Below are positions 29,152-59,200 of a DNA stretch of 64,000 nucleotides, piece by piece (within the stretch, counting starts at the first letter, position 1; the number at the start of each line of letters is the position of its first letter). A model generated the notes under the pieces. That model was not told the origin of the DNA. It saw nothing but the letters and a program-made list of their open reading frames with translations, and ran no database searches. This DNA comes from Mytilus trossulus (lineage: Eukaryota). The stretch lies in contig NC_086375.1 in NCBI RefSeq assembly GCF_036588685.1, positions 17,422,001 to 17,486,000 of the forward strand, given 5' to 3'. The position numbers and the translations under genes were made by a program.

Positions 29152-31610
29152 TTTGTAGTTTTAAACACACACATAAACAAATAAACACATGAATAAATAA
29201 ATAAACAAATCAAAACATTTCAAAATAAATATCACAATATTCGGATATACATATCCGACCTTATAAATAGAGATATGATATAGATATGTAATTAAATGTC
29301 AGGTACTATATACAAGTCTACACTCGATCTACTACCGTGCCAAGTTTTTTTCTTTATGGATTAAGATTTGCATTCATCTGACGTACTTCTGCAAACAAAA
29401 CCCCTTGTATGTACTCTTGTGTGAATGAACTACTTCAATATTTAGATTATTTCACTTCGACAAACATGTATAATATTGGTAGGTGATAAAATTCGACAGT
29501 GTTTTTATTCACCTCGAATTCAATCACTTTTTCAAAGTTTTGTATTAAGTATTTTAATATCGGAAAGTAGTTATATTGGATTAACTTTTTAAGCAAACAG
29601 TCTAGTATATTACATATAATTTGATATTAATGAAAGTGGATTTCTCTCTATTTGCTAATGAGTCATAATGATTTTAATACTGTTACTTTTTCAAATGTTT
29701 TTGGTTTGTATGAGAAATATATACAAATGACTTTGACCTGATCGGTCAAGATTAAAACAGCTACGTATATAGCTTTGTAGCAAGTGAAGCTTTGGAAATT
29801 TGCAGTATTTATTTGAAATCAAAACTTATAGTCCTAACAATTAAGACATGACAAATCCTTGTTTTCCGTAGTATAAACAAATATGACAGTTTTGACGGTT
29901 AAGTAATTAGGAATTTTGACTGCTTTAATTATAGCTTCTCGAAAAATCCTTTTAAGTGAACTCAAATTAGTTGCTGGTAAAATGATGCTGCGTTACTTAT
30001 AGTTGTTATATATATTGGAGAAATGATTATGCTTTTTCAATTACTTGTTCTATAATTTTATTTTCATTTTATTTTGAGACTGTGGTTTCATCTCAGTAAT
30101 TTCAACACCTGGAGGAATTTGTTTGTCTATTCTATCTTAATTTTGAAATTAACTACAGGTATCTGTATCTGTTTACGGTGTCTGTATTTAAAAAGAGTTA
30201 TGAATATGAAAATAATATTATTTCATTTGTGTGTGTGCAGAAATTAGTTATTTGCTATGCATAAAAAGTGTCTACGCATTCAGATTAGCTGTGTAAAATT
30301 CTAAACACTGAATTACAAATGAGAAAATAATAAAACAAAAACAAAAACAGAACCCCGTTTGATTACACAAACTAAGCATAAAACCAATCCATTCAAAGTA
30401 AGATTATGACTTATATGTCAGCGTTATCTGCAGGAGTTCGAAGTTAAATGATTGAGATGCCTTACTTATTCTTTATTATGTAGATCTATGATGAAATAAG
30501 TTTTTATATGTAATACATATGCTTTTGTTTAGTTCTAGATATCATATGATGGAGAACATAATTCTGCAAAACTTTGACAAAATTCGATTCTCATGATGTG
30601 TACCAATAAAACTAAATAGCAACGAAGAAGAGGAGAGACTAGAACGTAGATCATCATGTGTATTCTGGCTGCACATAATGTACATTGTTTCAATCATTTG
30701 CAAAACAAATCAAAACAATTATGCTTTAATATATCGAACATAAAATTAAATGACATAAACAAAACATGAATTCATTTCATTCATAGTACGGTCTTTTTTG
30801 AAGATGAAAAATAAGTCATAATTAATTCGGGCAAAGTATACGTAATTGTGAGGTATTTGGAGGTATTTCGGATTTTCACAAAAATTTGTAAGCATTTAAA
30901 ACTCGTCAAAATCGCCTGATTAACGTCAAAAGGATAAATATAGCATTTGTATTTCAAAATATAACATTTCTAAACAAGACCATAATGTAATTGCGATGAC
31001 TATTTTCATCCTAATGTTATATTCAATTTATATGAGAACAAAGGTTCTCCTTTTCTCCAAGGAAATCCATTATTCTCGGTATGTAGAGTGAAAAAACACA
31101 GAAAGGACAAAATAAGTGAAACGTAAAGACATCGTCTAGCTGCAAAATCGCAGTGTTTCATGTTAATTTTGACATACACTTTGATACTCGATGTTTTCGC
31201 AGAAAAAAAGTACCATTTTTGAATATTTTGTTTACTGAATTTATAGAAATAGTCAGTTATTGAATGTGAAAATAAATTTACTTGCCGCTTTAACGAACCT
31301 TCTAAACATATTCAGGTCAGTGTTTTCCCTATATTTTTAACTGATTAAATATTTGGAAATTTCAACGCTACATGTATCCTTCGATTGTCAGAAGTAGTTC
31401 AATGAAGTCTAATTTTCAAAAAAGGAAATATAAAGAAAATTACCGACTATTGCGTAAGATTGAGTTTTACCAAAACAAAATTCCCAAACCTTATTACCGT
31501 TAAACATACAAGTGGAAAACCAACATATGGTCAAATTTTGTCAGCTCTGTACATTTGATTCGATAAGACATCACAAACGGTATCTGTGTTAACCAGTCCG
31601 GCCAGACACA

Positions 31611-31767
31611 ATGAAAATCCATGCTTTGGCATTGTGTGCTATTTTGCAATTTCCTTTCTGTTTGAGTCTGTCTGTAGAAATTTTGAAGCCAAACAATACC
31701 GGACCAGAAGCTGCACTAATTATCGTCCCTGGAGCGTATATTTCAGGATCAGCATATAAACCTTTAG
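31611..31767 (+). CDS. Hydrolase A exon 1
   Basis: ATG...CCT TTA G|gtaagt, 157 nt. Confidence 0.9.
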
Positions 31768-34700
31768 GTAAGTTAACATATAAGTTAAAATTAGGGATTA
31801 TTACTTGAACAAAACAAACTTGTATTTCAGACTGCAACGAGTTGTAACAAAACAAAATACTGAGGTTTAAAATCCACAAAAACATTTTTTGACTTTTGAT
31901 CTTGGGAATATAGTTCTGATATTGAACAAGATTAAGGTAGCATGATTTCATAAAGGAAACATTGATATGATAAAAGAAACGGTACCAAACAATTCTTACA
32001 TTCTTTTTTGAATTACACCCCCTCCCACCCCCCACCCCACCATTTTTTCTTTTTCAGACTAGGTAACACGAGCAAATAAAAATATGCAAACAAAGATCTG
32101 CATGGGGTCTAGTGCTACACATGATTTTGGATGATGATGGATCATACAGAGATTTTAAAATGAGGAATCGCTGTTCACCTTTAAAAATTTTGAAAACATA
32201 GGCTTAACTGAGTTATCTAATTCGCAAAATTATAATGGCAAGATTTGAAATAGTTGCCATAAATTGTGAAATGCATTTTCTTTACTGATATAATAGTATA
32301 TTCTGGTGAGGGATTGAAAATACTTCTTCGGTACTATACTTTAGAATCACGTCAAGTTGTTGCTCTGATTAAGTGCTGCATTGATATATTTATATGATTA
32401 AGAACTGTGATGCATTTGTTTATGCGGAATAATCAGGGATGATGCCGTTTGAGCAAGTGTCCACCAAATATTTTATTGGGCAACGGGCGACAAATGTGCA
32501 ACTTAATTTTCTTCTTTTTAAAAAAATATCCTTTCTACAGCAAAATCGTGCAGATTTATGAATAAAAGTGATTTCCCCCGTTATTCAACATTAATTTTAA
32601 GTGGCAACAGGATACCTATAAAACGAGAACTAAAGTTTCAAACCACTTGTACTTTAATAATTTTATGTTCTAACATTTAACTTTATCGTTTGCGGTGATA
32701 CATTTATAACTTACTGCTTAGCTATAACTTACATTTTTCCACAGCCGAAGTTATTCAGAAGAAGAGTAATCTGAAATTATGGGTTGCCTTACTAGACGGA
32801 TTTTTTAATAAACTTGCTAACCCACTACAGCTTCCTATAGTATTTAAAAAAGCTGTGAATGAGTTACAAAAAGCAGGTTATAAAGGGAAGAAAGTGTTCT
32901 TGGCTGGCCATAGTCTTGGAGGTATGCATATTATATTATAACACTGTATTTAATTATTGATAGCTAAATAAATATTTGATTGGTTTAGACTAGTACCCGA
33001 CGTAACATTGAACAGATCCTGACGCAAGACATCTACCTTGCACGAAGTAAAGCGCGTTGAAATAAGATATATTTAGCGTTTAAACGCATCCACACAGCAA
33101 ACTCATTGTCAATAGTATGAGTTTTTAAAGCTTAGTCAGGATATACGTATCTAAATATTGATAATATCTACTGTATTTGTGGATGAAGGGTGGTGGTTAT
33201 CTCCGGGTACAACGGCATCCTCCACAAGTAAAATCTGACCTGTTTTGCATAAAGTGGCACCAAAACATCAACAGATAAATTAAAACATGTGTGTTATAAA
33301 ACTTAGTCATAGGAAAAATTACATGTTCTGAGTAAATTAGTTAAACGTTGAATAGTAGTGTTAAAAACATCTATCAGACCGAACCTAAAATATCCATCTC
33401 CTCTTTTTTAAGTTGAAATATCATCAACTATATGTGAAGTTAATTTAATTAAAGGTGAAGTTGCAGCCCTTTATGGACAAAAAGCGAACCATATTTTAGA
33501 TGGAGTGTTGTTGTTCGCATCTTACATTACTAAGAACAACAAACTAAAAGAGTATCCATTCCCGGTTCTGACCATAAGCGGTGACCTAGATGGATTAACT
33601 AGAATAACAAGGATCGTAGATACATTCGAGTGAGATTAATTTTTAGACACTGTGTTTTTGTTTTTACTTTCATGTACTGTTTAATAAATGTGTACGTTTA
33701 AATGCTCCTCTGGTACCTTTCCCCCTCCTTTAAAGTAACAGCAAATATAAGCCATACAATAATAGTAACCATATAAATGGAAAAGACGTTGAAATAAAAA
33801 AAAAATGAAAATAACACTGTAATACATTAAAAATCAAAATTGAAAATGACTTACTAGTAATAAGAATCCTGTATGGAACCTTGTATAACTGAGCTCGTCC
33901 ATTTAGCGTATCTTTCTTGTTAATTTTACTATATTTTCCAATAAAGGTTTAAAAAGGGTTATATTGTTTATCATTTTTATTTTCAGGGAACTCCAAGAAG
34001 ACGTAAAAAGCGACCCAGAGCAAATATACAGGACACCTGTAGTAGTAATGGAGAGTATAAATCATGGACAATTCGCTTTGGGTCCGTTACCCAAACCTGT
34101 AACTGATCATGATCTAAATCCAGAGGTATCTCAATCTGTAGCATATAATACCATAGCTAATTACTCGAACGCATTCATGGTAGTCGTCCGAAATGAAACA
34201 GATACCAATGTAACTGAAGCTGAAAACATCTTAGAAGACGGTCATACGAAAACCGCTGCAATGATGCAGGTGAATATAATTATGTTCTATATTTTTAGTA
34301 AAATCTGTCAAAACAATGAAAAAGTATTGGTCGTTATCTGTGTTAATTAGTATTTTAGTAGAGTTTTTTTATATTTATACTTATGTATTCTGACCATTAA
34401 ATTGTTAAACATTATAATGTGGTTAACATAGTCGTTGAGGAAAGTTATTTAGAACCTTATAGTCTGTTCTCTGGCACAATCCTGTTGTTCTGTCTAGTAA
34501 ATAATGAGAGGTACTCACAAACAGATACCGGCCCGTCTTACATAAAGCAACGACCAATCCATTAGCTCATAGAACCACATCATATTTATGATAAATTATT
34601 AATAAATGCAAATGGCGTTATATAGCAAAGATTCGAGAACCCCAAATTTCATTAAGGGATTAAGAATTAGTTGTGGATATCTAATGATTGCATCCCCATA

Positions 34701-35332
34701 TAAATCCATGGCAAAGTCAATGATTTGCCGAGGGAAACCACAAAAATAATTCAAACTCAAACCAAAATAGTGGACACAAAATGACATTATTTGTTGAAGA
34801 TTCAAAGAAAGTTTCATCAGATATATAAAGGATAGATGAGAAGGAAGTATTCTGATAATGAGTGTGGTTTTGTTGTTCAAACTTTTGTTTAGTTTATTTT
34901 TTTGTATAGCTGTTGATCTTGGTTACTTTTTCCTAAGCGAATGTTTTTTTATGCTCTTTAACGATTAAATATTGTATACTTTGTATATGTGTCTGATAAG
35001 GATCTTGTACTATAAGGGAAATCAATGCTTTCACATTTTTTGTGACAATTTGAATTATAGGTTTAATTCGAATCAAATTATTCTTTTCATATTCATGTTT
35101 ATACTTCAGTCAAATTATTCTGTAAAAACTAATGTCTTAATCCCGCGATCTGTTTATAAATTTAATTGTATTTGAACATGACATTACTTTAGGAGCGCAT
35201 TAATTATGTTTTATATCATTTTAGCCTCTCTCAAAAGTAAAAGCTCTTGATCAAAACCCAGATTTTACCTCACACTGGACTAACACTGCTCAAGAACTCG
35301 TTGTCAGTCTGAAAAATATAACAGATGTTGAG
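31611..35332 (+). CDS. Secreted alpha/beta-hydrolase-fold protein, copy A; catalytic triad intact; only exons 1-5 found (300 codons)
   Basis: Exons 31611-31767, 32745-32921, 33455-33629, 33987-34269, 35225-35332 splice in frame. Signal peptide, IVPGA, GHSLGG, SGDLDG, NHGQFA. No exon 6/7 homologue before copy B. Confidence 0.85.
32745..32921 (+). CDS. Hydrolase A exon 2 (GHSLGG nucleophile elbow)
   Basis: ttccacag acceptor, gtatgc donor, 177 nt open. Confidence 0.9.
33455..33629 (+). CDS. Hydrolase A exon 3 (SGDLDG)
   Basis: aag acceptor, GA|gtgaga donor, homologous to B/C exon 3. Confidence 0.88.
33987..34269 (+). CDS. Hydrolase A exon 4 (NHGQFA)
   Basis: ttttcag acceptor, CAG|gtgaat donor. 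Confidence 0.9.
35225..35332 (+). CDS. Hydrolase A exon 5
   Basis: PLSKVKALDQNPDFTSHWTNTAQELVV...; 108 nt as in B and C. Confidence 0.9.
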
Positions 35333-36968
35333 GTAATATTATTTTCTATAATTTTTTTTTCAGTAGAACTTGTATAGTAGAAAATAATAAAATGGCAGAA
35401 GATAAATAAAGGCAACAGCAGTATACCGATGTTCCAAAATCATAAGTCGATAGCAAAATACAAATCCAGGTCACAAACAAAACCGATCCATGATCTAAGT
35501 GGATTGTATCCTACAAAAGTATTTGATGTATACGTAAAAATGCATTAGCAAAAATACCGAACTTCAATATAAATTCAACGAAGGGGGAGCAAAAAACAAT
35601 AGATCCCATTTAAATAATAATAACGTTATTCAGATATCATTTCTAGGTTTGGACGTATTGGTCGCTTTGCATTGTAATACCTGATAATTAAAATCGTATT
35701 AGGATCGGTGTATTTATAGCAGGATATGCTGACCATGTAATTTTCGTATCATTCTTGCGATTCGAGCTTATGTTACTTTTCCGGACTTGTGTTTCAACTA
35801 ACGATCATCTCGACACCAACTCAGTAATGTTCTACTGATGATTTCGGGTGCTATATGGTTTAATTAGTTCATCATTTTATTACGAACGCACACTCAAGCA
35901 GAGATCATCATATCTAATAATTTAATAAACAAACACTACAAATTATCTTTCACAAACTTGAACCCTGGATAACCAGTTGGAAAATTCAATGCTATAAGAC
36001 TGAATAAGCACTATTCGGTTGTTTTCTCCTGGAAATTCGGCTTCATCAACCAATAAAAGACTGTTATACACATGATCGTTGAAATAACCAACAACAACTT
36101 AATTTAGTAACTACCGAATCGAAAAAGTTAAAAGGCCAAATAAATTACGAAGTAGATTATTCAGGACCTATAAAATTGTAAAAGGTTTGCCGATTGAAGC
36201 TTATCAATCAATACCTATGATGTACAATTATGGGCTGAGCATCTCTACTTTTAACGAAATAATAAAGGTTTCTTTTGACATTTGCTCTGTATTGCAATAC
36301 AAAGATAATGTTAAAGGGGTCAGAGATATATGTCGAATTGATATGGAATATAGTTGCTATAAATAAATTAAATGTTAAAGTGAACGAAGTATAAAAACTA
36401 TTCTTGCAAAAAAATCAACTAGTGATGCAGTTCTTATACTTAATGCTACGGTTCATCATTAAAAGATTAATTGAACTGATCACCTGAATTAAAGGTTTAT
36501 CAAATGCTGGAGCTATACTTGTAATCAACAATGAGTTGTAGCAAGGGTATAACGAACGTCGATAAGGAAATTGTTTCTAGGAATGCATCACACTTTTATG
36601 GCATGCTGTAACCTGTCGTAAGACTTTTATATCAGAATATTTTTTTACATATAACAAGTCACCACAAATTAATCAAATATACAAGTCTAGTACGCTTGAC
36701 GCGCGTTTGTCTTACTAGGGACGCTGAAATAGTGATATCGGTTGTCGCATTGTTTTTTTTCAACACTGAAAATAATAACTGTTAAATTCCCAAGGCCAAG
36801 TCTATAGTCCAATCTGGTGATAATACCAATGACGCTCCACGGTATGGTGTACAAGTCATCACATGAGGACGATATGATATGAAATACATAGATATGAAAT
36901 ATCCTATTATAAAGATAATCACCTGATAAACAAAGATACACGTATTTGTATTTACTTCTTTGAACAAA

Positions 36969-37125
36969 ATGGATACAATATTCAAAATAGCTTTGTTTTC
37001 TCTGTGTATTCAATCATGTTTGAGTATAAAAGTGACTGTTATGGCTCCAAACAAAACTGGATTGGAAGCTGCAATAGTGATAGTCCCTGATTCGTCTATA
37101 TCAGGAGCAGCATATAAACCTTTAG
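36969..37125 (+). CDS. Hydrolase B exon 1
   Basis: MDTIFKIALF...AYKPLG|gtaaga, 157 nt. Confidence 0.9.
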
Positions 37126-40100
37126 GTAAGAGGACTACACAATTTAAGAATAAACACCGTAAGATGGTGACAAGGGAACGTCACCATCTAAAAACGGACA
37201 ATTAACGATAGGAAATGAAAAATCATCCCTTTTATCATAAATTTCAGTATTCAGCTTTCCGTTAGTGATATAGATATCAAGATCGAGGAAAGGGCAGTGG
37301 TCATTGTTAGTATTAGCTTTATTCAAAGTAAGTTCAGCAGGATAAACTTCATTAATATACATACTGAAGTCGTCATTATTGAGAGCCAAAATATCATCTA
37401 AATATCTAAAAGTATTATTAAATTTGTTTATCAGATGTTGTTTTGATGGGTCTTTGCTTATTTTTGTCATAAATTGTAACTCATAACAATACAAAAAGAG
37501 GTCCGCAATAAGTGGTGCAGAGTTAGTCCCCATAGGAATTCCGATAATCTGACGATATACGGAATCCCCAAAGCGAACAAAAATGTTATCTAGTAAATAT
37601 TCAAGGGCATATATAGTATCAAAGCATGTCCAATTAACATAGTTTTTTTGTTTATTGCTACTAAAAAATGACCTAAAAGAGTTTGAACATATATATTCAC
37701 ATTCTGATTTTTTGAATGCCCATTTAATTAGGTGTGTGAATTTTTTCTTAATGAGAATGTGAGGCAATGTGGTATACAGGGTAGAAAAATCAAAACTTTG
37801 AACAGATTCAAAATCACCAATATAAGCATGCAATTTATCAAGTACTTCCAACGAGTTCTTGACACTCCAAAAGTAATTTATTCCACTATTTTCGAAGGCC
37901 TTATTTGTACAATTTATTATAAGGTTTTTAATTGTACCAATGTAGCTATATTTAGATTATCTCACTGGTTAAATTGTAAGGATCAACAAAATTTATACAA
38001 AGCAATAAAGATGATAAACAATACATGGCTGAGAGAATAATTTATATTTATATATTATAAACTTCAATGTTGTGATGTTAATAAAATGTATAGCATAAAG
38101 AGAATACAAACAAAGCTGGCTTGAATATACAAGCATAGTTAGATAAATGCATACTTGTTGGTTTATCTTTTTTAAGATAAGACATAATATCGCATTAGTA
38201 TAAAACCCAAACAATAGAATGGATTGTTAAGGAATAACACAAATACAATAAACAATACAAACATGATACATGGATAACACAATCCATGTTTTCTTCTCTT
38301 ATTCAAATGCGTGACAACTTGCCTCTCATCAAATTTGCATCTGTATAACTATATTTAGAGCACTGAGGAAAAAACCCTGTTTTTATATGTATTCATACTA
38401 GAAAAAAGATTTAGAGACAGTATACAAAACATAGCATAGCAAATTAAACACTGAAAAAATGTCACTCTGGATGGTTGAGGTACCGGTCGTGTTGCTCATG
38501 AAGGGACAAATCGGCGATAAATGTAATTCGACGATATCACTTTCGAGGAAAATGGATGGAATTGCGCTACGAACAACGGACATATCCATCGTCATTTTCG
38601 AACAACAGATAGTACATAACGGTTGTTCAAAGCAGGACTTCCGTAAAATATACGATGAAATGACTCATACCTCACCTTTTTTTTTATAACTTTATTATAA
38701 GCAGCAATTGTCTATAATGGAAATCATGATAGGAATGCAGGCTGCGGAGTAACGTACCAGCTCGGATTTATATTCCCTGTATGCAGACGCTGCTTAAATG
38801 TTATCAAATAGAAACGGCAAGTTCACAATTTGGAAGCTGAACTCACCTCTTTTGGCGTAATGGCTAATCTCAATCAAATCTTCATAGTCCATTTTGAGAT
38901 GTACTTTGAGATACGAAACAGACATAACTGTAACTGGTGTATCGTTGTATTTCAAGTTTGATGATATATAAGCGTTCAACATAGTCACCAAACTTATTTC
39001 GGCATGGGACACATCTGAATAGTAGAACGTAAAGATTTAGCAGGAGGAAATATTTTCTTTTTTGTTTTCCCTCAAAACTACATGTGTGAAATGTGCCTTT
39101 GTTTGAATAAAGGAACAATTCGATAAGAAGATGACCTCAGCGGGTTCCGATATGAATGATAATTGTTTGTTGAAAAACACGCCCTAAAACGTTACATAAG
39201 TGTTGTCAATAAAAAACCAAGCATATTGCTAATGTCTGTTTCATACATTGTTCTATTGAATCAGATAGTTAGTTTATAGATTATGAATTGTCCCATCCTA
39301 AAACAAGATAATTCTGTCTACGATGACCAATGTTTGAATGAAATGAAGTAATATCTATTCGTTTAATCTGTCTGTTAGTGTGTAAACTGATATATTGTGT
39401 AAAGGGTATAACAGTCAAATATAGTTAATATTATTGCTATAGCTATAACTATAGCTAAATCAATAGAAAAAGTCCTATTTTTATTCATGACACTCAGTTT
39501 GTATTGGTAGAGGAAGCCGGAGAGAACCACCGACCTTAGGTTGCAAAACTGACAATCATAGTCAGTTCTCTCACATATTATATATTTGACTAACGTGCAA
39601 ATATGTAAGCTCTGTCAACAATTCTAAGCTAAATTCATTTGGATAGATAACTTTATTACTATTATTAAATTGTAGAAACAAGACATATACAGTTCTGAAA
39701 AAAAGTTAAATCACAAAAGTACTGAACTTAGAGGAAAATCCAATCGGAAAGTCCATAATCACACGGCAAAATCAAATAACAAAACACATAAAAAACGAAT
39801 GGACAAGAACTGTCATATTCCTGACTTGGTACAGGCATTTTCAAATGTAAAGAAAGAACTTGTAGATGCATAATGAAAAAAAAGGGAAAGTCATAATGAA
39901 TAGTAAAATCACAATAATACTGAACTCCGAGGAAAATCCAAACGGAAAGTCCCTACAAAATCGTAATATCAAAATCTCAAACGCATCAAACAAATGGATA
40001 ACAACTGTCATATTCCTGACTTGGTACGGTGATTTAGTAATATCGCGCTCTATTCAAGACTTATTATTTGCACATTCTTGTTTAGTGTTAGTAATGTTAC

Positions 40101-43100
40101 TTAGCTTACAATACATATCATATGGATGATGTTTCAGCTAACGCAATACAGATTCGAAGCGCTCTGAGCTTATGGATTGCAATTTTAGAGACGAAACCAG
40201 GTTCATTAGCATTCCCTTTTGAATTCAACTATGCATGTAACGAGTTAGTGGATAAAGGTTTCCGTGGAGCTAAAGTATTTCTAGCAGGCCATGGTGATGG
40301 AGGTAGAACACATTTTTATGCTTCTTCACTTTTAATCTTTCTCATCATGTTCTCTTTCAGCAAAGGTATTACAGAGCAGAAGTACTATGAGATTATGGGT
40401 TGTGGTTTTAGAGAGCACACCAACTTCACTTTTATTCCCTATTAAATTCAACGGTGCTTGTAAGCAGTTGCTGGATGCTGGCTTTGAAGGCGATAAAGTC
40501 TTTCTAGCTGGTCACGGCTTAGGAGGTAGACTCAAATTATGGCATGATTACATTTATGATAAAACTTCTAGAAAAGATTCAAACCAATTTTACTAAAGTC
40601 TAATCATACAGAATTTAAAATGTTGTAATATACATTCGAATTTAAACCTTGTGCATGCCTTTTCCGCTTCTCATTTTATGCACAGTGACATGATTGCAAA
40701 AGAAATCCATTTCCATAGTTAATTTATGTACAATAAATTGCTTTATATTTTCATAATTCTAGACGTTCATTACTGAGAGAAGTTTGCAAAAGAAATAGAA
40801 AGTTTCCGGAGAACTCAATTGCAATTGTGAATACACTCTGATCTTTGTTACTTTATATAAGTCTCCGTTTTTCTGTTAGTAGTGGACTTCACATTTTCTT
40901 TTAACAATAACTGGATTTGCATTAAAGTTTAATAGTAATGTAAAAATATCTGCAACTTTAAAGAAACGAAAACAGAATCCTTAAAGGTTATTTCAATTCA
41001 AGCTATCTGAATGCTTTCTTATGAAATATCATTATTTTATTTTGTTTTCGTGTTTGTGCATATTTTTTTGAATTCATTTTATCCTGCAATTCGACAATTA
41101 ATTAAGACCTACTTACTATAATTGCTATGTTTGAATAGTGAACACCTATTTCATTTCCCAATATCCTGCTTCTGTTAGAGACGAACGGTGATATTATAAT
41201 TACTATAAACGTGACAGTTCAGGGGTCATAAAGGGCTGCATTTAAAAATTCCCCTGCTCATGAAAAAATAAAGATAATATTTTTTAATGTTTTACTGTAA
41301 AATTGCAGGATAGAAATAAAAGAGTTAAGTTACATGTTAAAAAACAACACTAACAGTATACGTACTCGCTACGATGAAACAGATGAAATGTTCAATAAAA
41401 AAGGAGAAGGAAACACCATATGGTCAATGACAATTCATAAGTCAAAACTACTATGGCAAAAAAACGAAAAGACAAACAAAAATCTAAGGAACACGAACTC
41501 AATATAAAACAGAGGTGATTTTAGACTTTCTGTAAGATAAAGCAGTTATGTTCTACATGTAACACCCGTCGTGCTGCTCGTGTAATGTATAAATCTTTTT
41601 ATAAACCTCTTTCGGTGTTGTCTCAATAGGGGAAATATGACGTCTGTGACAATTGGAACATATCCATGGTCATCTCTGACACATTTAAAAGCTAATTAAC
41701 GGTCGACCAAATGATGTTGTTGGTAAAACTTATTATTTTTATACATATATCGACAATCTACGTATGTTTAGTGTGTACATTTTTGTTTTAATAAATGAAT
41801 TAAATGCAGCTGAGAACGCATCAGCTATTTGAAGCAACGTCAATACGATAAAAGCACGGTTTTTGGGTTTTGCAAATAGGTTTCGTTTTAAATGTTTAGT
41901 ATATATTTGATATCTTTTTATGATAAACCAATGTTAAAAGAGAAAATTTATTTCATAGGTCATAGGGCATCTAGTTATGGCCATTCAATCTTCCATAAGA
42001 ATCGACTTGATGGAGTGCTGTTGTTTTCGTCGTTTCTCAGCGGAAGTTATCGGCTGAACAATTATCCATACCCAGTTCTTACAATTAGTGGGGACTTAGA
42101 CGGAGTAACGAGAGTAACAAAAATGGTTGATGCATTCGAGTGAGTGATGATTTTTTGTTATAATAATGATAGTAGTTAGGTAATATGAAGTTCCTTACAT
42201 ATTCGATTAACACGATTAACATATTGGTGTTCAGTGAAATAACAACATCTAATGTGGGATTACGAGGCGCCGAATGGGACTCTTGTGGTTTTGTAGACAA
42301 AATTCATTTTTGTCATGAAAAAAGTCAATTTTGTCAAAAAAGGTATGCAAGTATAAACTTATTTGCATACAAAATTGACTTTTGTTACCGGATATGGAAA
42401 TTAAAACACAAAATTGACTTTTGTGAGACAAAATTGACTTTTGTGACAAAATTGACTTTTGTGAGACAAAATTGACTTTTGTGAGACAAAATTGACTTTT
42501 CTGAGACAAAATTGACTTTTCTGAGACAAAATTGACTTTTGTGAGACAAAATTGACTTTTGTGAGACAAAATTGACTTTTGTTAGACAAAATGTACTTGT
42601 GTGAGACATAATTCAATTTGTCAATTTTGTCTCACAAAAGTCAATTTTGTGTCACAAAAGTCAATTTTGTGTCACAAAAGTCCATTTTGTATGCAAATTA
42701 GTTCACAGAATCGAAACTAAACTAATTCGCATACACAATTGAATTTTATCGCAGGTAACAAAAGTCAAGTCTGGGATACAAAAATTAGTTTTGTAATGAT
42801 AAAAGTAACTTTTGTCCACTTAAAGATAATTTTGCATGACAAATTTTAAATTTGTAGTATTCTACAAATTTTGTTAAACTGAACTCATTTTTGTTGATCA
42901 AAACTCACTTTTGTCCGTACAAAATTGAATTTCGAGTACAAAACCACAAGAGTCCCATTCGGTGCCCCGTAGCGATACTATCAAAATTTGATCTGAGATA
43001 ATTGTATCAAAATCTCAAACGATACAATTTAGATTTTCATTTTCATTGATTTTATTACTTTTGCTTTCTTACTTATTTTGCACGATTTCATCAACCATTG

Positions 43101-45668
43101 TCACCTTTTAAATCAAATTTCAGAGAGTTGGAAGAAGATTTGATACTAGCTCCAACACAAAAATACACTACACCCGTAATTGTAATGGAAGGTATGAACT
43201 ATGGACAGTTTGCATCTGGTACCCTCCCACCAGCTGTAGCGAGTTATGACTTGAAACCAGAAATTTCCCAAAAAGATGCATATGATGCTATAGCTAACTA
43301 CACGAACGCATTTATGTTGTATGTACGGGACACAAATGTATCAGAAGCAACATCTATGCTCGAAGAGGGATATTCGAAAACACAGTCGATACTTCAAGTG
43401 AGTTTGAATCATCACCTCATTCCCAGAATTTTGAAATTATTATGATTGTTAACTTGTTTTTGTATGATCATCCACACTTTGTTAAGCCTTATAGGTGACA
43501 TTAAAGACTATTCACTTCAATCGAGAGAAACCAATCGGCTTAATTTCCATGTTTTTAATTTAAAAAAAGTAGCTGAACAAGAATGTTCCGGCACTCACAA
43601 ATAAATATAACTATTTTGACTTCTAAATATCATTTTGTAAGAATCTGCTTTTCACACCAGTACCATTGATGTAGCCTTTCTCTGATTTGTATCTTTTGAG
43701 GAAATGGAGGTAGACATAATGATAAACATAAAATTCAATCCTTAAATAAAAAAAAAAAATGTTTTATCAAAATCATTGTAGTACCAAAAAAATAAGGTTA
43801 TAGAGCGATTAAATGGGTTTTTTTTTTCAAGAAAAAATATAACGATTTGTTTTTGTTTGTTATTTCAGCCCCTTTCACAAGTGAAAGCTCTTGATGATAA
43901 TGAAGAATATGTCTCACATTGGACAAACACTGCTCAGCAACTGATAGTGGGTCTTCTGGATACCTCACTAGTAGAGGTAAAATATAACACATTGATATTA
44001 TCATATAGATATTATATCGCTTAATATAAAGCATGTAGCATTTCCAATTTTTAAAAACGAAATGTTGATCAAAATATTTACCAAATAGATAAAATGGACT
44101 GGTAGAATTTGTTTCAAGTGGAGACAAAACACAACAACATTTGAATAAAGTGGAATTTAAATGTTGAGAAAATGAATTACCATTTAAAGTCATTAACATT
44201 AACAAACTTGCGTGGTGTCCATTGTTTCTTAATTGACTATATGATTATCATAGTAAAGATGTTTACAGGGTACTAATTATTGATAATTAATACACAGATT
44301 CTTCATCAAAACATTACAGCGATCCTTTTAGAAGTGTTATTATCCATATTTGTGTTTATCTGTCGGAGTGTATTACGTTTGGTTAGTATATTGAAACTGT
44401 TAGCTTTTGTAATATCATTTTTTCTAATTCTGTTTATTTCAGTTCGATAATACAGAAGAAACACCATCACAGCCTAAATCATTTCGATTTCGCAAACCGC
44501 ACCAGTCGGATATATTAAAAATCAACAGCTCCACTGAAGTGTATTTTCCTAACACAGATGGTACCAAGATTCCTCAAAGTCCCCTACAACTTAAAGCAAC
44601 CATGACAAATCAAAGAGCTATTAAATCACTTTTGCCATCTGCACCTTTTGGTGCCCCTGCTACATGTCAAGATATCAATCAGGTATATTACTGTTAATCT
44701 CAGAATTATTTAACAACAACAGAAACAGTAATAGTAATAATAATAATAATAAGATTGCTTATATTTGGAAGCAATCGTTTCTTTCATGATAATATGAAAG
44801 CATGCCGAGAAGCTACTATGTTGACTAAAATGGAACAGCGCACACACCAAAACCATTAGTATAATAATTTGAAATTGTCAATGACACTGCAGCGCTTTGC
44901 AGATTCTTAGCATGCGTATATCCCTAGAACTAGGCGGTTATTGTGTCATACTTTACCTTGTTTACTACCATTTGTCGGTAGTGGTGTTGGCGGACGGTTA
45001 AATCTGGTTGGTAACACTTTCACAATTTTCAATGTGAACTTTCTAACAACGATATATTCACTTAGATATATTGATATTATGAAATTGCTTTTACACACTT
45101 AATCTCTGGCCGGGAAAAGCCGGAACATTCCTAAATTAAGTTAAATACTAGTAGATTGGAAGTCGACATAAAGAACAGAAACCCAATGTTTAAAACAGAA
45201 TCGGTAAACTATATTGAATAGATTTATAATCAATACGGTAAATAAGTGTTACCTTTAGGTGCATTTCCTGATGTAATTTGTTGTTGTGTTGTGACAAATG
45301 ACGGACACTAGACATCTTCATTTATTCGTGATAACAATTTGTTTTATTTAATATTGTAGGATGCCTTTACACTAGCTTTTTCGAAATCTTCAGCCACAGC
45401 AAAGGCTAGATACCAGTCTAAAGGAAGGCCAATACAATTTCTTCCAGACGTCAATGTTACATCGAAGAACAGTTGGAACCAATATGGAGATCTAAAACTT
45501 AACTACAACATAACTGGTCTTTTTGTTCAGGCTTCACGTTATATATCCACTAAACCATCAGGGAGAGACGATGACTGCACCTTGTTATCGCCCTTTAGGG
45601 CAATGGAATGGATATATGTAGATTCTTTGAAAAATACAAAAGAACAAACATATACAAATAATACATGA
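36969..45668 (+). CDS. Secreted alpha/beta-hydrolase-fold protein, copy B, 477 aa with either exon 2a or 2b; predicted catalytically dead
   Basis: Exons 36969-37125, 40138-40302 or 40361-40525, 41959-42139, 43124-43397, 43869-43976, 44443-44682, 45360-45668, all GT-AG and in frame. GHGDGG/GHGLGG, NYGQFA, C-terminal CTLLSPFRAMEWIYVDSL. Confidence 0.88.
37147..37940 (-). mobile_element. Penelope-like retroelement reverse transcriptase fragment, open frame, in intron 1 of hydrolase B
   Basis: SFDFSTLYT, GIPMGTNSAPLIADLFL, RYLDDIL, FLDLDI, YDKRDDFSFPIVN motifs; truncated at both ends. Confidence 0.85.
38400..39410 (-). mobile_element. Degenerate Penelope-like element (RT C-terminus plus 3' tail)
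   Basis: YAKRGEFSFQIVNLPFL resembles YDKRDDFSFPIVNFPFL; tail resembles the repeat at 20412-20727. Confidence 0.65.
39705..40028. repeat. Two tandem fragments of the Penelope-tail repeat; inverted copies at 11285-11570, 14990-15150, 63830-64000
   Basis: aaatcacaa(a/t)a(g/a)tactgaact...aactgtcatattcctgacttggtac repeated. Confidence 0.75.
40138..40302 (+). CDS. Hydrolase B exon 2a (GHGDGG)
   Basis: gtttcag acceptor, gtagaa donor, 165 nt, phase 1-1. Confidence 0.85.
40361..40525 (+). CDS. Hydrolase B exon 2b (GHGLGG), tandem duplicate of 2a
   Basis: ttctctttcag acceptor, gtagac donor, 165 nt, phase 1-1. Confidence 0.85.
41959..42139 (+). CDS. Hydrolase B exon 3
   Basis: tttcatag acceptor, GA|gtgagt donor; SGDLDG. 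Confidence 0.9.
42261..42971. mobile_element. Foldback-like MITE with internal 20-bp tandem array
   Basis: 35-bp terminal inverted repeats (33/35 match); about 10 copies of GTGAGACAAAATTGACTTTT at 42408-42610, inverted copies at 42620-42690. Confidence 0.85.
43124..43397 (+). CDS. Hydrolase B exon 4
   Basis: tttcag acceptor, CAA|gtgagt donor; NYGQFA. Confidence 0.9.
43869..43976 (+). CDS. Hydrolase B exon 5
   Basis: 108 nt, PLSQVKALDD... Confidence 0.9.
44443..44682 (+). CDS. Hydrolase B exon 6
   Basis: 240 nt open, PQSPLQLKATMT...CQDINQ|gtatat. Confidence 0.9.
45360..45668 (+). CDS. Hydrolase B exon 7 (terminal)
   Basis: DAFTLAFSKSS...MEWIYVDSLKNTKEQTYTNNT-TGA. Confidence 0.9.
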   Translation, partial: DAFTLAFSKSSATAKARYQSKGRPIQFLPDVNVTSKNSWNQYGDLKLNYNITGLFVQASRYISTKPSGRDDDCTLLSPFRAMEWIYVDSLKNTKEQTYTNNT

Positions 45669-46720
45669 CAGTGATAAACTTTAAAAAAAAAAATACATCA
45701 TCTCTAAAAATTAACAACTTTCAATACATGGATACATGTAATATATTTTTATTTTTCACACATTCTTATATTTTCTGTCATTCCTAGTGATTGTTGAATG
45801 TTTACAGTTTTTCACATAATGTTGTTAAAGTGTGGTTTTTTAATGTTTTTAACGCATATCTTTGTCAAGGAATCCTGTAAGTCAGTGCCTGGTTTGTTGA
45901 TGTCTATCATATATGATTTTGGTTTTCAAATTTGAATTGTTGTTAATTCGCGTTTGAATTGTTTAACATCTTTACAGTTGACAATACGGAGTTTGTTCTT
46001 CTTGTTTAATGTCATACTGTAATTGTAATAGCTTATATTTACATTACTTGAACTCTAGTGAAAAGTTGTATATTAGCAACCATGTTAAATCTCCTTATTT
46101 GCTTATTCGTAACCCGGATCTTCTTTGCTTTTGAATATACCCGAATAGTAAAGGCTTTCAAATTTGGAGGTTTAAGTGTTTTTTATGAATTTAAACCGAG
46201 ATTGCGCTTACGAGTGACGGCACATGCATTTGTCTTAATACCTTAATACATAAGGTCGCGAACTTTCGTTATATCTCGGTTCTTCTGTGGTTGTCTTTTC
46301 ACTGATACTTTTTATATCGTTAATCTAATGCGATGTCAGAAGAAGAACTTTAAGCAAGAACAACAGAAACACCGAACTGCAACAAAAATAAACGTTAGCA
46401 TACATATAAACGGACTATTTGATAACAACTGCCATCTTTCTAAATTGGTAGAGGAAATTTTAAGCAAATATAATGGGTTGAACCTAGTTCTATGGCTAGC
46501 CCAACCTCCCGCAATATATGACAATGTTAAAAATGGCAATATTTCGTGACAGGAATACAGTATAACCAAACGCAAAACACTCAGCACAGAAAAATGCATA
46601 ACTACATAATATAATTATACATAAACACATGTATTACCCACAGTATAACATCAGACAGCTTCCTTTAACGACAGTATACATTTATAGAACACCACAAATA
46701 ATGACGGATTTTGTGACTTA

Positions 46721-50057: not shown

Positions 50058-50214
50058 ATGAACACTTTGTATTTAGCATTTGTACTTGTTCAAAATGCAC
50101 ATCTGTGTTTTACTTTATCTGTAGAAGTAGTAAAGGCAAATTGTAGGGACCCGGAAGCTGCTATTGTTTTCATTCCCGCAAAGGATATACATGGGGACAG
50201 ATACACACCTTTAG
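50058..50214 (+). CDS. Hydrolase C exon 1
   Basis: MNTLYLAFVL...RYTPLG|gtaagg, 157 nt. Confidence 0.9.
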
Positions 50215-53200
50215 GTAAGGTCAAATAACATTATAAATTACATATACGACTCTCTCTGACATTTGAATAGAGGGCCAAGGTACGACATAATATGTCTAAC
50301 TAAGACAAGTATATAATAATTATATAAATGATGAACTTTATAACTGATAAAAGAAAACTAACAGTTGTTTTACGGAATTGATAACCGTTTGTGAATTACG
50401 ATCTTTGTTATATCTCCAAGTTGATGCAATATTTCATAATTTCAATTTCTTATCATGATTTCAAAATCCTTGATCATGTTGATAGGGGATTGTTGCTAAC
50501 AAAGAAGTTATTACATCAAGGGTGCCATATGTTTGGAAGGATCAGCTTTCTCTTTACAAAATGGAGATTAAAACTGGTTTTGGTGAATATCGTGTTGATT
50601 ACAGCATCGCAATATGTTTGGTTATTTAACAACACATCATGTTTTTTGATTATTCATATTTAAAACAAAATGCTCTCCAAAAAGGCAGCTGCCAGATTAC
50701 AACGCGTCGGCTTTTCACGTGAACACTATTTTTACACATAACTGTATTCATAGACACCCTGAAATCGGTAGACGTAGCCGGGTACTTGTACATCCCAACA
50801 GCAAACAAGTAAAATCACAAAAATACTGAACTCCGAGAAATTGTAGATAAAAAAGTTCGTAATCAAATGGCAAAAGCTCAAACACATCAAATGAATTGAT
50901 AACAAATATCAAATTACTGACTTGGTACAGGAATTTTCTAATGTAGAAAATGGTGGATCAAACCTGGTTTTATAACATGCTAAACCTCTCACTTGTATGA
51001 TAGTCGCATTAAATGTAATTATAATGACAACGATAAGTAAACAAAACAAACAGACATAGTAGGTATAAATGTAAAAAAATAGGGCTACAGCAGTCAACAT
51101 TGTTTTATTATTTTAATCACTATAAACAAACATTTCCCATGTGATAAAATACAACGACAGGATACATAAGAACAGAGTCACGTCATCGGCCCAAAGAAAC
51201 AGAATACACAGCCACAGCATATGCGTAGCAATAATTTATTTTCAACGACAAGAATACACAAATTATATAGAACACTCAAATGACGGGATGTATAAGTACA
51301 GAGCCACGTCAAATGGAGTCCACTAAAAAAACCAGACTAAACATTAAAAGTAAAATTCATGAAGATACATAAAAGAATACTACACAACTTATTGAGATGA
51401 TAAACAACGTCAGTACCAAGAATCTATACTCCAAGACCATCGTGTATTCTTTTTGAAACTGATTCGAACTTTTTTTCAACAAGGTCTTGGTACCTTCCGA
51501 TGAAACTTTTTTTTTAGAAAAAGGACGAGACGTTCTTTGACATAACACTGGTTCATCAACTTTTTGCTCAAACACTGGTGACGTTTTACAAAGTCTGAGT
51601 AGTTGCTGTATGCTTTTAAATACCGAATAAGTTGGGAAATTTATATCCCATATGCAGGTGAAGTTGGTATAGCTACTAAGGTTGGGGAAATTGACAATTT
51701 AAAATTTGAAATCGTCTCGTTTGTCATAGATTATGGTACTGAGAGGTGTATATCAAATTCGAGGTATAAGTCCAAATATGAGCGGAGGAAGTCGTGTTTG
51801 TTGTTTCTTTAATTTCTATGGAGGATATATTAATGGAACTTAATCAGAAAATTTTGGATTATAAATGGGGAAAAAAACATCATCAAAATATCGGAATGTG
51901 AATTTAAATGACCAGGCTTTTTTTCTCTTCTTGTATTTTACAAGTGTCTAAAGGAACTCCGATTCATATAAAAATAAGAAGAGATCAGCAAGGACAGGCA
52001 CACTGTTTGTTCCAACAATGCCGACACTTTGTTGAAAACGTTTACCTCCAAATTAAACAAATAGGTTGTCAATTAGAAACTCAAGCAAACTGTTCACTTG
52101 TTCCTCTGAGTAGCATGTTTTACCTTGTTTGGTCCCTATTAACATAAAATGCCGTATGGTATTCCAAAGTAATATATTTATATCGTATGCTATCATTTTT
52201 ATGTTAAAAAGCATTGTGGATTATTACTTCAAACCCATTTTTAATTTCACACGGGGAATGTTGGTATACAGGGTATATACTGGTTAAACAAGAATCTGCC
52301 AAAAATTACGGAGAATCGGTCAGATTTTCACTTTAGTTTTTGTTGGTTATCTATGTTTTATTTTATTTTTCCGTTTTTAAAAAATATCTTTGTTTTTGGT
52401 CTCTTTAGAACGAAAGCAGGATAAACGAGCAACTGCTAGGTTTTTATTTACAAATGATTTAAATATTGCAGCTGAGGAGATCATACGGCGAAGTGATTTG
52501 AAACTATGGGTTGCCATATTTGATGAACAGCCATTTCTTGCTGACATGCCATTTGCATTTCTATCGGCATTTACACATTTAAAAACTCATGGATACAGAG
52601 GAAAGTCGACTTTCCTGGCTGGACATGGAGATGGAGGTTAGATTATATACATTATGGTTTTACCGAATGACTTGTCCATATGAAATATATATAGATGTAT
52701 TAAAGTGGTACCTACAGTACATGATCAAAATTAGTGTTTGTCAAACTGCTATATAACCAATGAAAACTTTCTGATAAAGTGGGTGGTTGGTCAATTTTTT
52801 TTGAAATTTACATATTTTCGACAAAACTTTATGAAAATTATAAGAGCCAAATTAATATTTGTCAAGGTGTTGGGTACAACCTAAAATAAATAAATTGTAA
52901 TCATTATGGGTCACAGAGGGGGTGAAGACAGAAGTTTTATTAGTATTCGGTCTGTCTATATATGACTTGAATATGATAAAAAATAATACAAAAAAGCATT
53001 AAATTAGATGATCCAATATCAGAATAAAACAAAAGTAAGATCGATTTTGTGTAACCAACATGTATAAAATAAAGTATTCAACAGATACAGTTACGTCTGT
53101 CTCATATCTGGAAAAGGCGTGAGAGTAAGACAAATAAGAGTTCAATGGCCTACATGAGGATCCATTTTTATTCATGGAAAACAAACTGGAAAGACTTCAA

Positions 53201-56200
53201 GTTTTAAATCTAGTATTGAAATCAAAATACATACACAAGTATATTGCTTACACCACAATACACTTCTATAAATGTTTTATCCGGATTTACATTTGTTAAC
53301 TTTTTTCTTGTCCGGTATTCTAAATTGCTTTTCTTAATAATTTTAGAGATCGTTGCTCAATTCATATTCCGGAACTTTTCGCAGTTCTTCACAGATTAAG
53401 CTTATAAACTGTCTGACCGACATTTATTCGTGTTTTATATCCATTGGGTAATATATGGTGATACTTTCGTCCTTCTACTCCCACTTTAACTTTTTGAATA
53501 TCAAGAACTTTTCTCGTGAAGTACACTAACAAGAACCTGATAATTTCAGCTCATACCATAGTTTCTACTAACAATTGTTTATTTTGAAGGTCTAGTAGCT
53601 GCTCGTTTTGGCACTTTTTCGAGTTACCTTCTTGGTGGAGTTTTGTTATATTCTTCATATCTGCCTGATGGAAGTCTTCTTAATAAGTATCCGACACCTG
53701 TTTTGACCATTAGCGGAGATCTGGACGGATTAACGAGAGTTACAAAAATTGTCGACATATTCGAGTGAGTTTTCATTTACAATTATCATTCATCATAAAT
53801 AAAACATGTGTAATTGGTGATGTTTTCTTTCTGAACTGAACATGTAGAACAAGAGCACAACATGTTTAATACCTAGTATATATGTACAAAAATATTTTTC
53901 TTTACGTCAATAAACTCATCATAGATACCAGGACTAAATTTTATATATACGCCAGACGCGGGTTTCGTCTACAAAAGACTCATCAGTGACGCCCGAATCC
54001 AAAAAAGTAAAAAAGGCCAAACAAAGTACGAAGTTGAAGAGCACTAAGCACCAAAATTTCCAAAAGTCCTGCCAAACACAATTTGTACTTCGGTCAACGC
54101 TTTTACACCCAACAAAGTTACAAAAAGAAGCATTCAATTCTTAAATAAAAGTCACCAACATGAAACACATAGTAAGCAGCCAATATTGTCCAATATAGCA
54201 AAGGTAAATAACGTGTATTAAAATGAAATTCTATGGACAAATTTAAACAAATGCTCAATACTTTAGAATGTAGCTTTTTATTGTATTGGTATTTCGTTAA
54301 AAAAATTAGATTACAAATTTCAAAGATTTGATTATTATAACCAGTTATGACAAAATCGAATTGTGTAATTTTGTTTAAAAGTAATGAGAAAAAAAATCAG
54401 TTATTTACTGTAGAACGAATGGGATGTTATTGTCACCTATATAAATATATTGTCCCTAGCCAACAACCTCGTTGACGGTTGTCTTTTTTTTTATATCTCA
54501 ATTAATTACCTAGATTGTATTTTTCTATATCTACATAGCTAATTTCCGCAAGTGTTCTAACTTGGACAGTTCAGACATCAAATCACCCCAAACCTACGGG
54601 TATTTTAAATGATATATTTACCCATATCCTTTTATTCCAAAACAAGCAGAAGTAAATCAAACCAAATACTTTATTTAGAGAGTTACAGGCAGATATTGCA
54701 CAATACCCAACACAAAAGTATAAAACTCCGGTAATTATGATGGAAGGTGTAAACTTCGGACAATTTGCATTCGGCAAACTACCATGGTGGTACGCTGAAC
54801 ACGATTTAACACCAGAGGTAACGCACTTAGATGCTTATCACACTATAGCTGACTACACGAGCGCATTCATGGTATCTGCACAAAACGCCTTAAAGACGAA
54901 TGTGACAGCAGCTCGTGCTTTTCTGGATCAGGGGTACTCAAATACTCAGTTATTACTGCAAGTAAGTCTGGTATTATATGGTTATATCATGTTTAAAATT
55001 AGCAAAAAAAAATATTAGATAAAATGGATGTCAAGTTGAAGCTTGTTTATTTGTTCTTTGTTTGGCTACATATTTGTTTTTCGTGATTGTTGCTATTGTA
55101 TTGTTTTTGGAAAATAAAAAAAAAAAACTAGAGCAAATGATGTAATAATATACAGCTCATTGTAATTTTTAATCTTTTTATTTCTTTCATACCTTACTTT
55201 TAGTCCCCGATTTTTTTTAAAATATATTACATTGTGGAGATCCCGGACATCGACCGCGAGTTTTTGTCCGTTTATTAATTAAGCGTAGGTGGCGTTCTAG
55301 TCTCTTTTCTGCTTGTGACATGAATACGTGATATTTTAATATATATCTTGGGTTTGAAAGGGGGGATACATTTGGTTAGTCCTTTATTTGACAACTTTGT
55401 ACTACCCAGCGGTTAAAATATTGTATCATTATTATTACGTGTACAGTTTCTTGAAGATTCAAGCAGAAAATGCTGAATAGTTATCAAAGGTACCAGGATA
55501 TTAATTTAGTACGCCAGACGCGCGTTTCGTTTACATAAGACTCTTCAGTGACGCTCAAATCAAAAATATTTATAAACCCAAACAAGTACAAAGATGAAGA
55601 GCATTTGGGATCCAAAATTTCAAAAAGTTGTGTCAAATACGGCTAAGGTAATCTATGCCTGGGATAAGAAAATCCTTAGTTTTTTCAAAAAGTTCAAAGT
55701 TTTGTATACAGGAAATTTATAAAAATGACCACATTATTGATATTCATCTCAACACCGAAGTGTTGACTACTGGGCTGTTGATACCCTCGGGGACGAAACG
55801 TCCACCAGCAGTGGCATCGACCCAGTGGTGTAAATAGTTATCAAAGTATCCTGAAGTTACTTTCGACATTCATGCAGAAAATGCTGAAGTTACTTTTAGG
55901 TGACACGTCACATTGATAAGATTTTCAAAACATGTTTGATCAAAAGTATAGAACTTCATGATAAATTCATACTGGACTATATCAAACAACGCTGGGAAAT
56001 AATGTTGAATAACTGTCATATTCCTGACTTGGCACAGACATTTCAAGAAGAAAACAGTGGGTTCCTGGTTTACGAGGCAAAAACAATTACAGATAGATCA
56101 TTATGTAATATGATTACTGCCCTATACAGATAAAACAAGTGAATGTTTATCTTTATTTCAGCCTCTTTCACAGGTGAAAGCTTTAGACCAGAACATAGAG

Positions 56201-59200
56201 TTAGTATCTCATTGGACAACTACTGCTCAACAGCTTATTGTTAATTTGCTCAATTCCACATCAGTTGAGGTATACTTCAAATTTAAGTGAAGTATTTATT
56301 TTCATTTGGTGCTAGACATAAAAAGTTTACCATAAGATTACGAAATACATAGTGATTATTTCATATAGAGAAAAAAGTAAAAACACAAAAATACTGAACT
56401 CCGAGGAAAATTCAAAAAGGAAAATAAAAAAAGAAAATATTTTGATATAGTAAAACAAATTGACAATTCAGGAACCTGTGATTCAGTCTTATTTGTGGTT
56501 ATTGTTTGTTATATTTTGTTTTCTTTAATTGTTTTGTCTTAAGGTAGATTGATGGTATACCGCCATCTTGGATTGTACAATCACAGTACAAAATCGGTCT
56601 AGTTATTTGCTTAAATCTGCAAATTTGGAGACAGATTTGCAATTCAATTGTTAGAAGTTTTTTTCTATTGAAAGAAAACTTTTTAATTGATTGTATTAGA
56701 CAAAATATTTTAACAAATATTATGTTCTTTGGTTTTAAAATAATTTTTTTCTAATGAGTCATTTAAGGGGAGATAACTCTTTTAGTACAAAATTTATACT
56801 GGGCTAATAGGGAATTTTTTTATATTTACTTTTAGCAAGAAAACAAGTTCGGTGACACCATGTTTTCTTTTTATTATCTTAAAACATATTATGAAACCTT
56901 TCTTCTCACAATTTATTTCAAAATTCTATCTCATAGATTTTTTTTTATGCACACTAATGTGTTTTTTCATGAACAAACTAACCAAATTTTTGCAATTTTC
57001 AACGACTCATATCTTGGAAAATAGCACGGTGACCCATACTTTTTATTAAATTTTTGAAAAGAGCATAGTATAATCTTCATTTTGGCAAATTATAAAAAAA
57101 ATCTGTCTCAAAAAATATATACTGGTGATCCACCTTAAATCAGGCCGTTTGGTTATTGCGTTTAAATTGTTCTACATTTTGTAATTTTGACATTATCTAT
57201 AGCTGACTATACGAAATAAGTTTTGCTCATTGTTGAAGGTCGTATGGTGACCTATAGTTGCTTATATCTACGTCATGTTGGTTCTGTGTGATCGTTAAAT
57301 CTCATTTGCAAGCATGCACAATCTTATATTATATTGGGAGATATTATATATTTGCAACGTCGGAAGAATATGAGCACATCCATTGTTGAAGGCCATTATT
57401 GGAAGTTATGTGTGTTGTCTCATTGACAATCATATGATATCTCCTATTTACAGTTAAATAATTGTTTATTACTTTTTATATCTAGTTTGTAAATCATGAA
57501 ACTGGTTCTGAAAATGCTAGAAAGGAAAAACAACCAAATCCATCGATTCTGACAGACGATTTACAGATTGTCAGCTCAACATCAATAATGTTTGATAAAA
57601 GACCGAAAGATAGCTCAGTGTATCCACAGAGTCCAGTGCAACTAAAAGCAACAATGACCAGTCAAGAAGAAGTGAGAAAGAGGATAGGAACTAACCAGTT
57701 TGGAGATCCTGCATCATGCCAGGATATTAATCAGGTTAATTTGTAGTACTTAAGTAAAATCGTGTAACTGGAACGGAAATTCAAAAAAAAATTGAATGAA
57801 ATCGATTTGTCCAAACAGATAAATTGAACATTAATCTACGGATTGCTTGATGGTGCTTAATGAAACTTCGTGCACGCTTGACTATATCGTGGTGGTGATA
57901 AATAATATAATATAAGAACGACCATACAATAAAATTGAGAAAGGAAATGGGGAATGTGTCAGAGCGACAACAACCCGATAATAGAGCAGACAACAGCCGA
58001 AGGCCACCAACGGGTCTTCAATGTAGCGCGAAACTCCCACACCCGTAGGCGTCCATCAGCTAGCCCCTTAAAAATATGTATACTAGTACATTGATAATGG
58101 ACGTCAAACTTAACTCTGAATTTTACACAAGAAACTAAAATTAAAAATCATACAAGCCTAACAAAGGCCAGAGGCTTTTGACTTGAGACAGGCGCAAAAT
58201 TGCTTTGTGGTTAAACATGTTTATGAGATCTCAACCCCCTATACCTCTAGCCAATGTAGAAAAGTAAACGCATACCAATACGCACATTAAAATACATTCA
58301 GTTCAAGAGAAGTGCGTGTCCGATGTCAGAAGAAAATAAATAAAATGACAATGATGCATAAATAACAACAGACTACTAGCAGTTAACTGACATGCCAGCT
58401 CCAGACCTCAATTAAACTGATTGAAAGATTATGTCTTCATCATATGAATATCAGGCACAATCCCTCCCGTTAGTGGTTAAGTATCATACTATCATAAAAT
58501 ATATGTCATGCTTACAACTGTTTTTTTTTTTTAGATAAATGTGTTAAGTTCCGATGCAAAGACCCTATAAGTGAATCAATATTGAAGCCAAAATATGCAA
58601 TCTTTAATGACCTAACAACAGTATCGTAACTAAAGTATATTTTTAGAAATAATATACTATTGTATGATCGTTCTTGAAAATTCGTACATATTATATTGAA
58701 CACGATCAAGCTGCTAAAAGCAAAGCATCCATTACATCGTACCACTTAAAATCCTTCTGACAATAGTTTGTATATTCGACGGCAAATCATGCATTACAGT
58801 TTATTTTGATTTAATCCTACATTTTGTTTTTCTGTGTGTAAACCATAGACATTTAAGTATACAGCATAAATTCATTTGAAGGATTAAATATAAAGAATGA
58901 TAAATGGCAAAATCTGTATCGCATGCTGTATGACCACGAGAAACCAATATCAGTCCCGAGGGCCGAAGTTCCCGAGGGCGGATGTTGGTCGATACGGATT
59001 TTACCATGTATTGATATGTTTATCATATTATTTAACAAATGTTAGCGGGCAACCGTTTGATTCTGTGGTGGAAGCCTGTAGGATTTTTAGAAGTAAATAA
59101 TGTTGTCTTATTACACGTAAAATTATAGATATTCTGAACATATGTTCTAGGCTTATTCACTCCGGTGTATTGATTTGTAATTATCTAACATTTGATGCTG

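Follow-up and report, generated by a model that had tools for sequence, protein, structure and literature searches.

The window, by which we mean the whole 64,000-nt stretch of DNA analysed, contains no N (a count of 0) and comes from an AT-rich assembly of 1.3 Gb. It carries three tandem Abhydrolase_5 paralogs, all on the plus strand, which we call A (31611–35332), B (36969–45668) and C (50058–60440); a fourth copy, D, lies ~70 kb past the window (C3:17554891–17564048) and a fifth, divergent copy, E, lies on C9 (50006317–50018193). The exons of gene A, which have a single occurrence in the assembly, and the two neighboring genes are as follows.

31611–31767, plus strand: A exon 1, signal-peptide-like N-terminus (exon model; RNA joint in 4/4 runs)
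32745–32921, plus strand: A exon 2, nucleophile motif GHSLG with Ser109 (exon model and RNA)
33455–33629, plus strand: A exon 3, GDLDG with Asp157 (exon model and RNA)
33987–34269, plus strand: A exon 4, His196 and the S201L codon at 34078–34080 (exon model and RNA)
35225–35332, plus strand: A exon 5, the last exon present, with the phase-0 donor GAG/gtaata (exon model and RNA)
36969–45668, plus strand: gene B, 477 aa, without the catalytic Ser and His
36969–37125, 40138–40302 or 40361–40525, 41959–42139, 43124–43397, 43869–43976, 44443–44682 and 45360–45668, plus strand: exons of B
50058–60440, plus strand: gene C, 484 aa, seven exons, without the catalytic Ser and His

Joined as in our exon models, A exons 1–5 give an open frame of 300 aa, and exon 5 does end in phase 0 at its GAG/gtaata donor, as the original prediction had described. 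Four of 20 listed sequencing runs (X7, X8, X10 and X20) were compared as contigs over 31400–45900; X20 is recorded as RNA, X7 and X10 are guessed to be RNA and X8 has no recorded status, and X20 carries the label of a mollusc metagenome and may come from another species. Each of these four RNA-type runs shows splicing of all four introns of A, which disposes of the possibility, raised earlier, that A is untranscribed. The acceptor of exon 3 (33430–33454) has no clear pyrimidine tract, though its joint is present in all four runs.

The hydrolase family and its second domain

A profile search identified 53 homologous proteins. Both P0087, the public 323-aa model from this genome, and P0041, a full-length Mytilus ortholog of A, match Pfam PF12695 (Abhydrolase_5; 56.8 and 55 bits, respectively, against a cut-off of 27). 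The AF2 model of P0041 (pLDDT 90, pTM 0.87) has two alpha/beta domains in succession, the first of them the hydrolase domain, and its best structural matches were all alpha/beta hydrolases. The closest solved member of the family (PF12695, IPR029059) is AroC (PDB 9EH6), which PMC12177695 presents as a fold-5 esterase; residues 19–238 of the P0041 model match almost its entire chain with a Z of 22.4 and an rmsd of 2.6 Å over 194 aligned residues. The A ortholog shares with AroC the fold and the conserved Ser, Asp and His, which in A are S109 (conserved in 48 of 55 aligned homologs), D157 (55/55) and H196 (51/55); in contrast to AroC, the proteins from animals begin with a signal-peptide-like segment and carry a second domain of ~200 aa. 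Identity to AroC is ~20%, and no PET activity is implied. According to the model, the hydrolase core is encoded wholly in exons 1–4. The second domain (~281–488 of P0041; exons 6–7 of B, 44443–45668) is confidently modelled, has no Pfam match and is conserved from molluscs to echinoderms in the profile search. Its first strand (299–305) straddles the exon 5/6 junction in the AF2 model. Among the literature matches listed there was no study of Abhydrolase_5/PF12695 in molluscs. One scallop transcriptome paper reportedly mentions PF12695 once.

The claim that A is the only catalytically intact copy holds among the five copies found in the assembly, as judged by the nucleophile Ser, which is replaced by Gly in B, C, D and E; B, C and D have also lost the His, to Tyr or Phe. 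By sequence, four of the five family copies found would be pseudo-enzymes with intact frames, and a binding or regulatory role seems likely for them; B and C have conserved counterparts in other Mytilus species, and B is spliced in RNA. Exon 2 of B occurs as two tandem 165-nt copies, 2a and 2b (40138–40302 and 40361–40525), 58 nt apart and used alternatively, exon 1 being joined to 2a in X10 and to 2b in X7; the annotations of three Mytilus species contain matching pairs of 477-aa B isoforms. Exon 2 of B is a conserved mutually exclusive exon, and the choice of copy alters the dead nucleophile elbow region (GHGDG or GHGLG). B intron 3 holds an array of a ~20-nt unit in both orientations with long inverted flanks (42270–42950), which resembles a foldback-type element, and a dispersed repeat at the start of B intron 1 (37150–37940) is covered in all four runs by one unspliced contig each; these contigs probably derive from other loci.

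Exons 6 and 7 of gene A in related mussels and in this assembly

The A orthologs fell into two clusters, one of P0041, P0085 and P0086 (M. galloprovincialis, from two assemblies, and M. edulis) and one of P0040 and P0084 (M. californianus and M. coruscus). All five full-length orthologs, from four Mytilus species, are 488 aa long and have their own exons 6 and 7; the other members of these clusters are P0087 and one 82-aa fragment. Over the first 300 residues the window's A is 97.7% identical to P0041. Over the last 188 residues, encoded by exons 6–7, the A orthologs are 88–99.5% identical among themselves, 54% identical to B and 49% identical to C. Maximum-likelihood trees of both protein halves (22 and 21 rows, midpoint root, with a long-branch warning on the second tree) gave A,(B,(C,D)), with the window's A nested in the A clade. 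Since exons 6–7 of the orthologs form a clade of their own at 54% identity to B, A ancestrally had its own 3' exons; and since the trees put the window's A inside the A clade, whose orthologs have these exons, their absence from this assembly is a derived loss.

The place where these exons would be expected holds the following features.

35333–36968: interval expected to hold A exons 6–7 and the 3' UTR, 1,636 nt, no remnant found
35400–35486, plus strand: incomplete copy of a dispersed, abundant repeat, with a candidate breakpoint at its right end

A sensitive tblastn search of 35333–36968 with the exon 6–7 peptide of the ortholog found no remnant of A exons 6–7 (best E = 1.3), bearing out the earlier observation that this interval holds no homolog of the PQSPxQLKATMT or MEWIY exons. 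When P0041 was compared with the whole assembly (34/34 candidates scored), matches to its exons 6–7 occurred in paralogs only (31–57% identity); A-specific exons 6–7 were absent from all 541 contigs searched, and none was found in 160 kb of separately searched stretches of C3 and C9. The absent coding sequence amounts to at least 567 nt. In the paralogs the stop codon lies 1.7, 4.2 and ~4.6 kb beyond the exon 5 end, and the whole A–B interval is 1,636 nt here.

The abrupt break of a repeat reported near 35487 is real: 34 of the 40 genomic copies among the matches listed cease matching at 35486, and all five copies inspected stay alike for 15 to 200 nt beyond the equivalent point. From the sequence, the break at 35486–35487 is a plausible deletion breakpoint. 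The repeat is very abundant (2,070 first-look candidates in the assembly), truncated copies are frequent, and the five inspected copies end at places that differ from one another, so that a truncated repeat is not diagnostic of a deletion.

Transcripts beyond exon 5

Three further features have been proposed, or are used in the public model, as the 3' end of an A transcript.

35333–35377, plus strand: hypothetical intron read-through, 14 codons and the stop TAG at 35375–35377, unused by the contigs that pass exon 5
36795–36866, plus strand: cryptic phase-0 terminal exon of the public 323-aa model P0087, without RNA cover in four runs
44443–44682, plus strand: B exon 6, suggested as the exon shared with A; B contigs alone account for its RNA depth

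Only two of the four RNA-type runs bear on the sequence after A exon 5; the A contig of X8 stops inside exon 5 and X10 shows just 25 nt, and neither informs on the 3' end. In X7 and X20 a contig passes exon 5, with an exon-5 piece of 110 nt whose match ends at 35332. The X7 contig is spliced through A exons 1–5 and continues for 140 nt beyond this match; the X20 contig continues for 246 nt, which is the inferred length of exon 6 in the ortholog. By alignment and depth bookkeeping, neither leftover lies on intron 5, B exon 6 or the cryptic exon. In the depth bins of B exon 6 the values observed were 2.86 and 22.6 (X7), 7.25 and 57.2 (X10) and 0.11 and 0.97 (X20), of which the B contigs explain 2.86 and 22.58, 7.25 and 57.21, and 0.11 and 0.88, respectively; in X8, too, the depth is matched by the B contigs alone. 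Placed on B exon 6, the leftovers would add 0.41 and 1.70 in X7 and 0.28 and 2.24 in X20. The cryptic-exon bin has 0.25 and 0.12 unexplained versus 2.1 and 2.5 needed for the X7 and X20 leftovers, and a depth of 0.75 is unexplained in X20 over 35756–36239, where the 246-nt leftover would need ~2.5. As this bookkeeping leaves no room for them, both leftovers lie outside 31400–45900; we infer that they are A exon 6, exons 6–7 of gene C also lying outside the compared stretch. The organism code of X7 is also that of X1, a DNA run that may be the source sample and holds 0.97 of the window's words (the shares for DNA runs X1–X5 being 0.63–0.97, computed over 32745–35500), and this suggests that an intact A allele exists in this species. 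The loss of A exons 6–7 is probably not species-wide. A-specific exons 6–7 in other haplotypes, which the original prediction had named as refuting it, occur across species in the five orthologs and are indicated, indirectly, within the species by this RNA.

These observations bear directly on the proposal that A exons 1–5 are normally joined to B exons 6–7, so that the N-terminal cassette would vary and the C-terminus stay constant. Loci of variable cassettes and constant exons include UGT1A and the clustered protocadherins, which the A–B region resembles in that paralogous 5' parts stand in tandem ahead of 3' exons compatible with them in splicing. B exon 6 begins in phase 0 at 44443, 9,110 nt downstream of A exon 5, and the A5–B6 join made in silico is open, so the frame compatibility claimed for this junction stands; however, B exon 5 is likewise in phase 0, and a phase match is expected between paralogs. 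Unlike at UGT1A and the protocadherins, every paralog here, A included, ancestrally carries its own 3' exons (in four other species, 5/5 full-length A orthologs have them, so that no relative offers a cassette lacking its own), and the 5' part consists of five exons whose joint to B is not seen. The predicted 35332–44443 junction is absent among the joints listed in the contigs of the four runs, and neither of the two contigs extending past exon 5 enters B exon 6. The B contigs by themselves account for the depth on B exon 6 in X7, X8 and X10, and in X20 they leave 0.09 unexplained versus 2.24 needed; the B contigs of X7 and X10 are continuous from exon 4 to exon 7, and a query with B exon 7 gave nine hits, of which the one at 100% was B itself. 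While contigs lose rare variants, so that a minor 35332–44443 junction could be missed, it is extremely improbable that such splicing is the normal mode of gene A.

It has to be considered as well that the loss might be fixed in the species, with A ending by read-through (314 aa) or in the cryptic exon (323 aa). The cryptic exon, used by the public model, ends 102 nt before the B start codon; it has no RNA cover in the four runs by depth bookkeeping, for which contigs show presence, not absence. The read-through has the sequence originally described, a 314-aa product with a hydrophobic tail (mean 2.64, the highest value among 18 donor read-throughs of genes A, B and C) and with AATAAA downstream of its stop, at 35386 and 35405, the latter at the edge of the repeat; however, the X7 and X20 contigs cease matching exactly at the donor, 35332, and do not follow it. 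Hydrophobic tails also arise readily from AT-rich introns, AATAAA occurs here at 1.83/kb and would fall within 60 nt with a chance of ~10%, and the protein would be cut inside the predicted strand 299–305 of the second domain. Taken as the species-wide 3' end of A, either form is very unlikely.

A probable deletion allele of gene A

We consider it fairly probable that A is an ordinary esterase-like gene of seven exons and that a real deletion allele explains the absence of exons 6 and 7 here. Of the three readings in the original prediction, it was that of a deletion allele or an assembly join that gained support. A multi-kilobase deletion on this chromosome copy, likely segregating beside an intact allele, would begin within intron 5, probably where the repeat is cut (35486), and would take with it the introns, the poly(A) site and at least 567 nt of coding sequence. 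The transcript of the deletion allele would end by read-through, in the cryptic exon at 36795–36866 or by running into B, and would either be unstable or encode a protein that keeps the entire hydrolase core and lacks the second domain. Nonsense-mediated decay degrades transcripts with an early stop, and a transcript entering B via the cryptic exon would have such a stop and would probably be degraded. As the catalytic core is modelled in exons 1–4, the deletion allele need not be null, and the shortened A protein could still fold. That carriers of the deletion splice A exons 1–5 onto B exons 6–7, rebuilding a full-length two-domain enzyme, is a very long shot; if true, this would be a segregating allele founding a shared-constant-exon locus, prompted by the loss of a poly(A) site.

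The competing account, that both chromosomes are intact and that a few kilobases with exons 6–7 were lost at an assembly join in the repeat, is possible and we judge it unlikely. The candidate junction does fall in a very abundant repeat, A exons 1–5 are open and close to those of the ortholog (the 97.7% identity given above), and all RNA contigs seen fit an intact gene. Against this, the window has no N gap, and a search of 541 contigs did not find the missing exons. In comparison with the five orthologs, the window's A also has three private residues, S18L, N59K and S201L; the S201 site is Ser in 48 of 55 homologs and Leu in none, and at T>C in its codon (34079) the window differs from all four RNA runs. 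As a sign of decay S201L, a single substitution, is weak evidence; together with the lack of N, the single-copy exons and the cut in the repeat, it favors a real allele over an artefact.

A drop-out is also made less likely by how common true hemizygous deletions are in bivalves. Published work describes low-coverage, hemizygous sequence as 36.78% of one M. galloprovincialis assembly (PMC7653742) and hemizygosity of 0.17–6.69% over eight molluscs, with repeats a major component (10.1101/2020.09.15.298695), and on this account such deletions are frequent in bivalves. Gene A resembles the hemizygous deletions and presence–absence variation described there for Mytilus and other molluscs in that coding sequence of its relatives is missing from a haploid reference, is probably present in conspecifics, and has a repeat at the candidate edge of its loss. 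Unlike the presence–absence variation of whole dispensable genes, A has lost part of a gene, and here an artefact is possible.

For users of this genome, the public 323-aa model (P0087) is not the normal protein of A, and RNA reads of A exons 6–7 cannot map to this reference. As it stands, the locus matters little beyond this, being a further gene truncated by a deletion, or by a loss in assembly, in a genus where such variation is familiar. A real allele would strike the sole one of the five family copies found that retains the catalytic serine, and its carriers would be a natural test of the function of the enzyme and of its uncharacterised second domain, and of whether a transcript that has lost its end borrows the exons of its neighbor.
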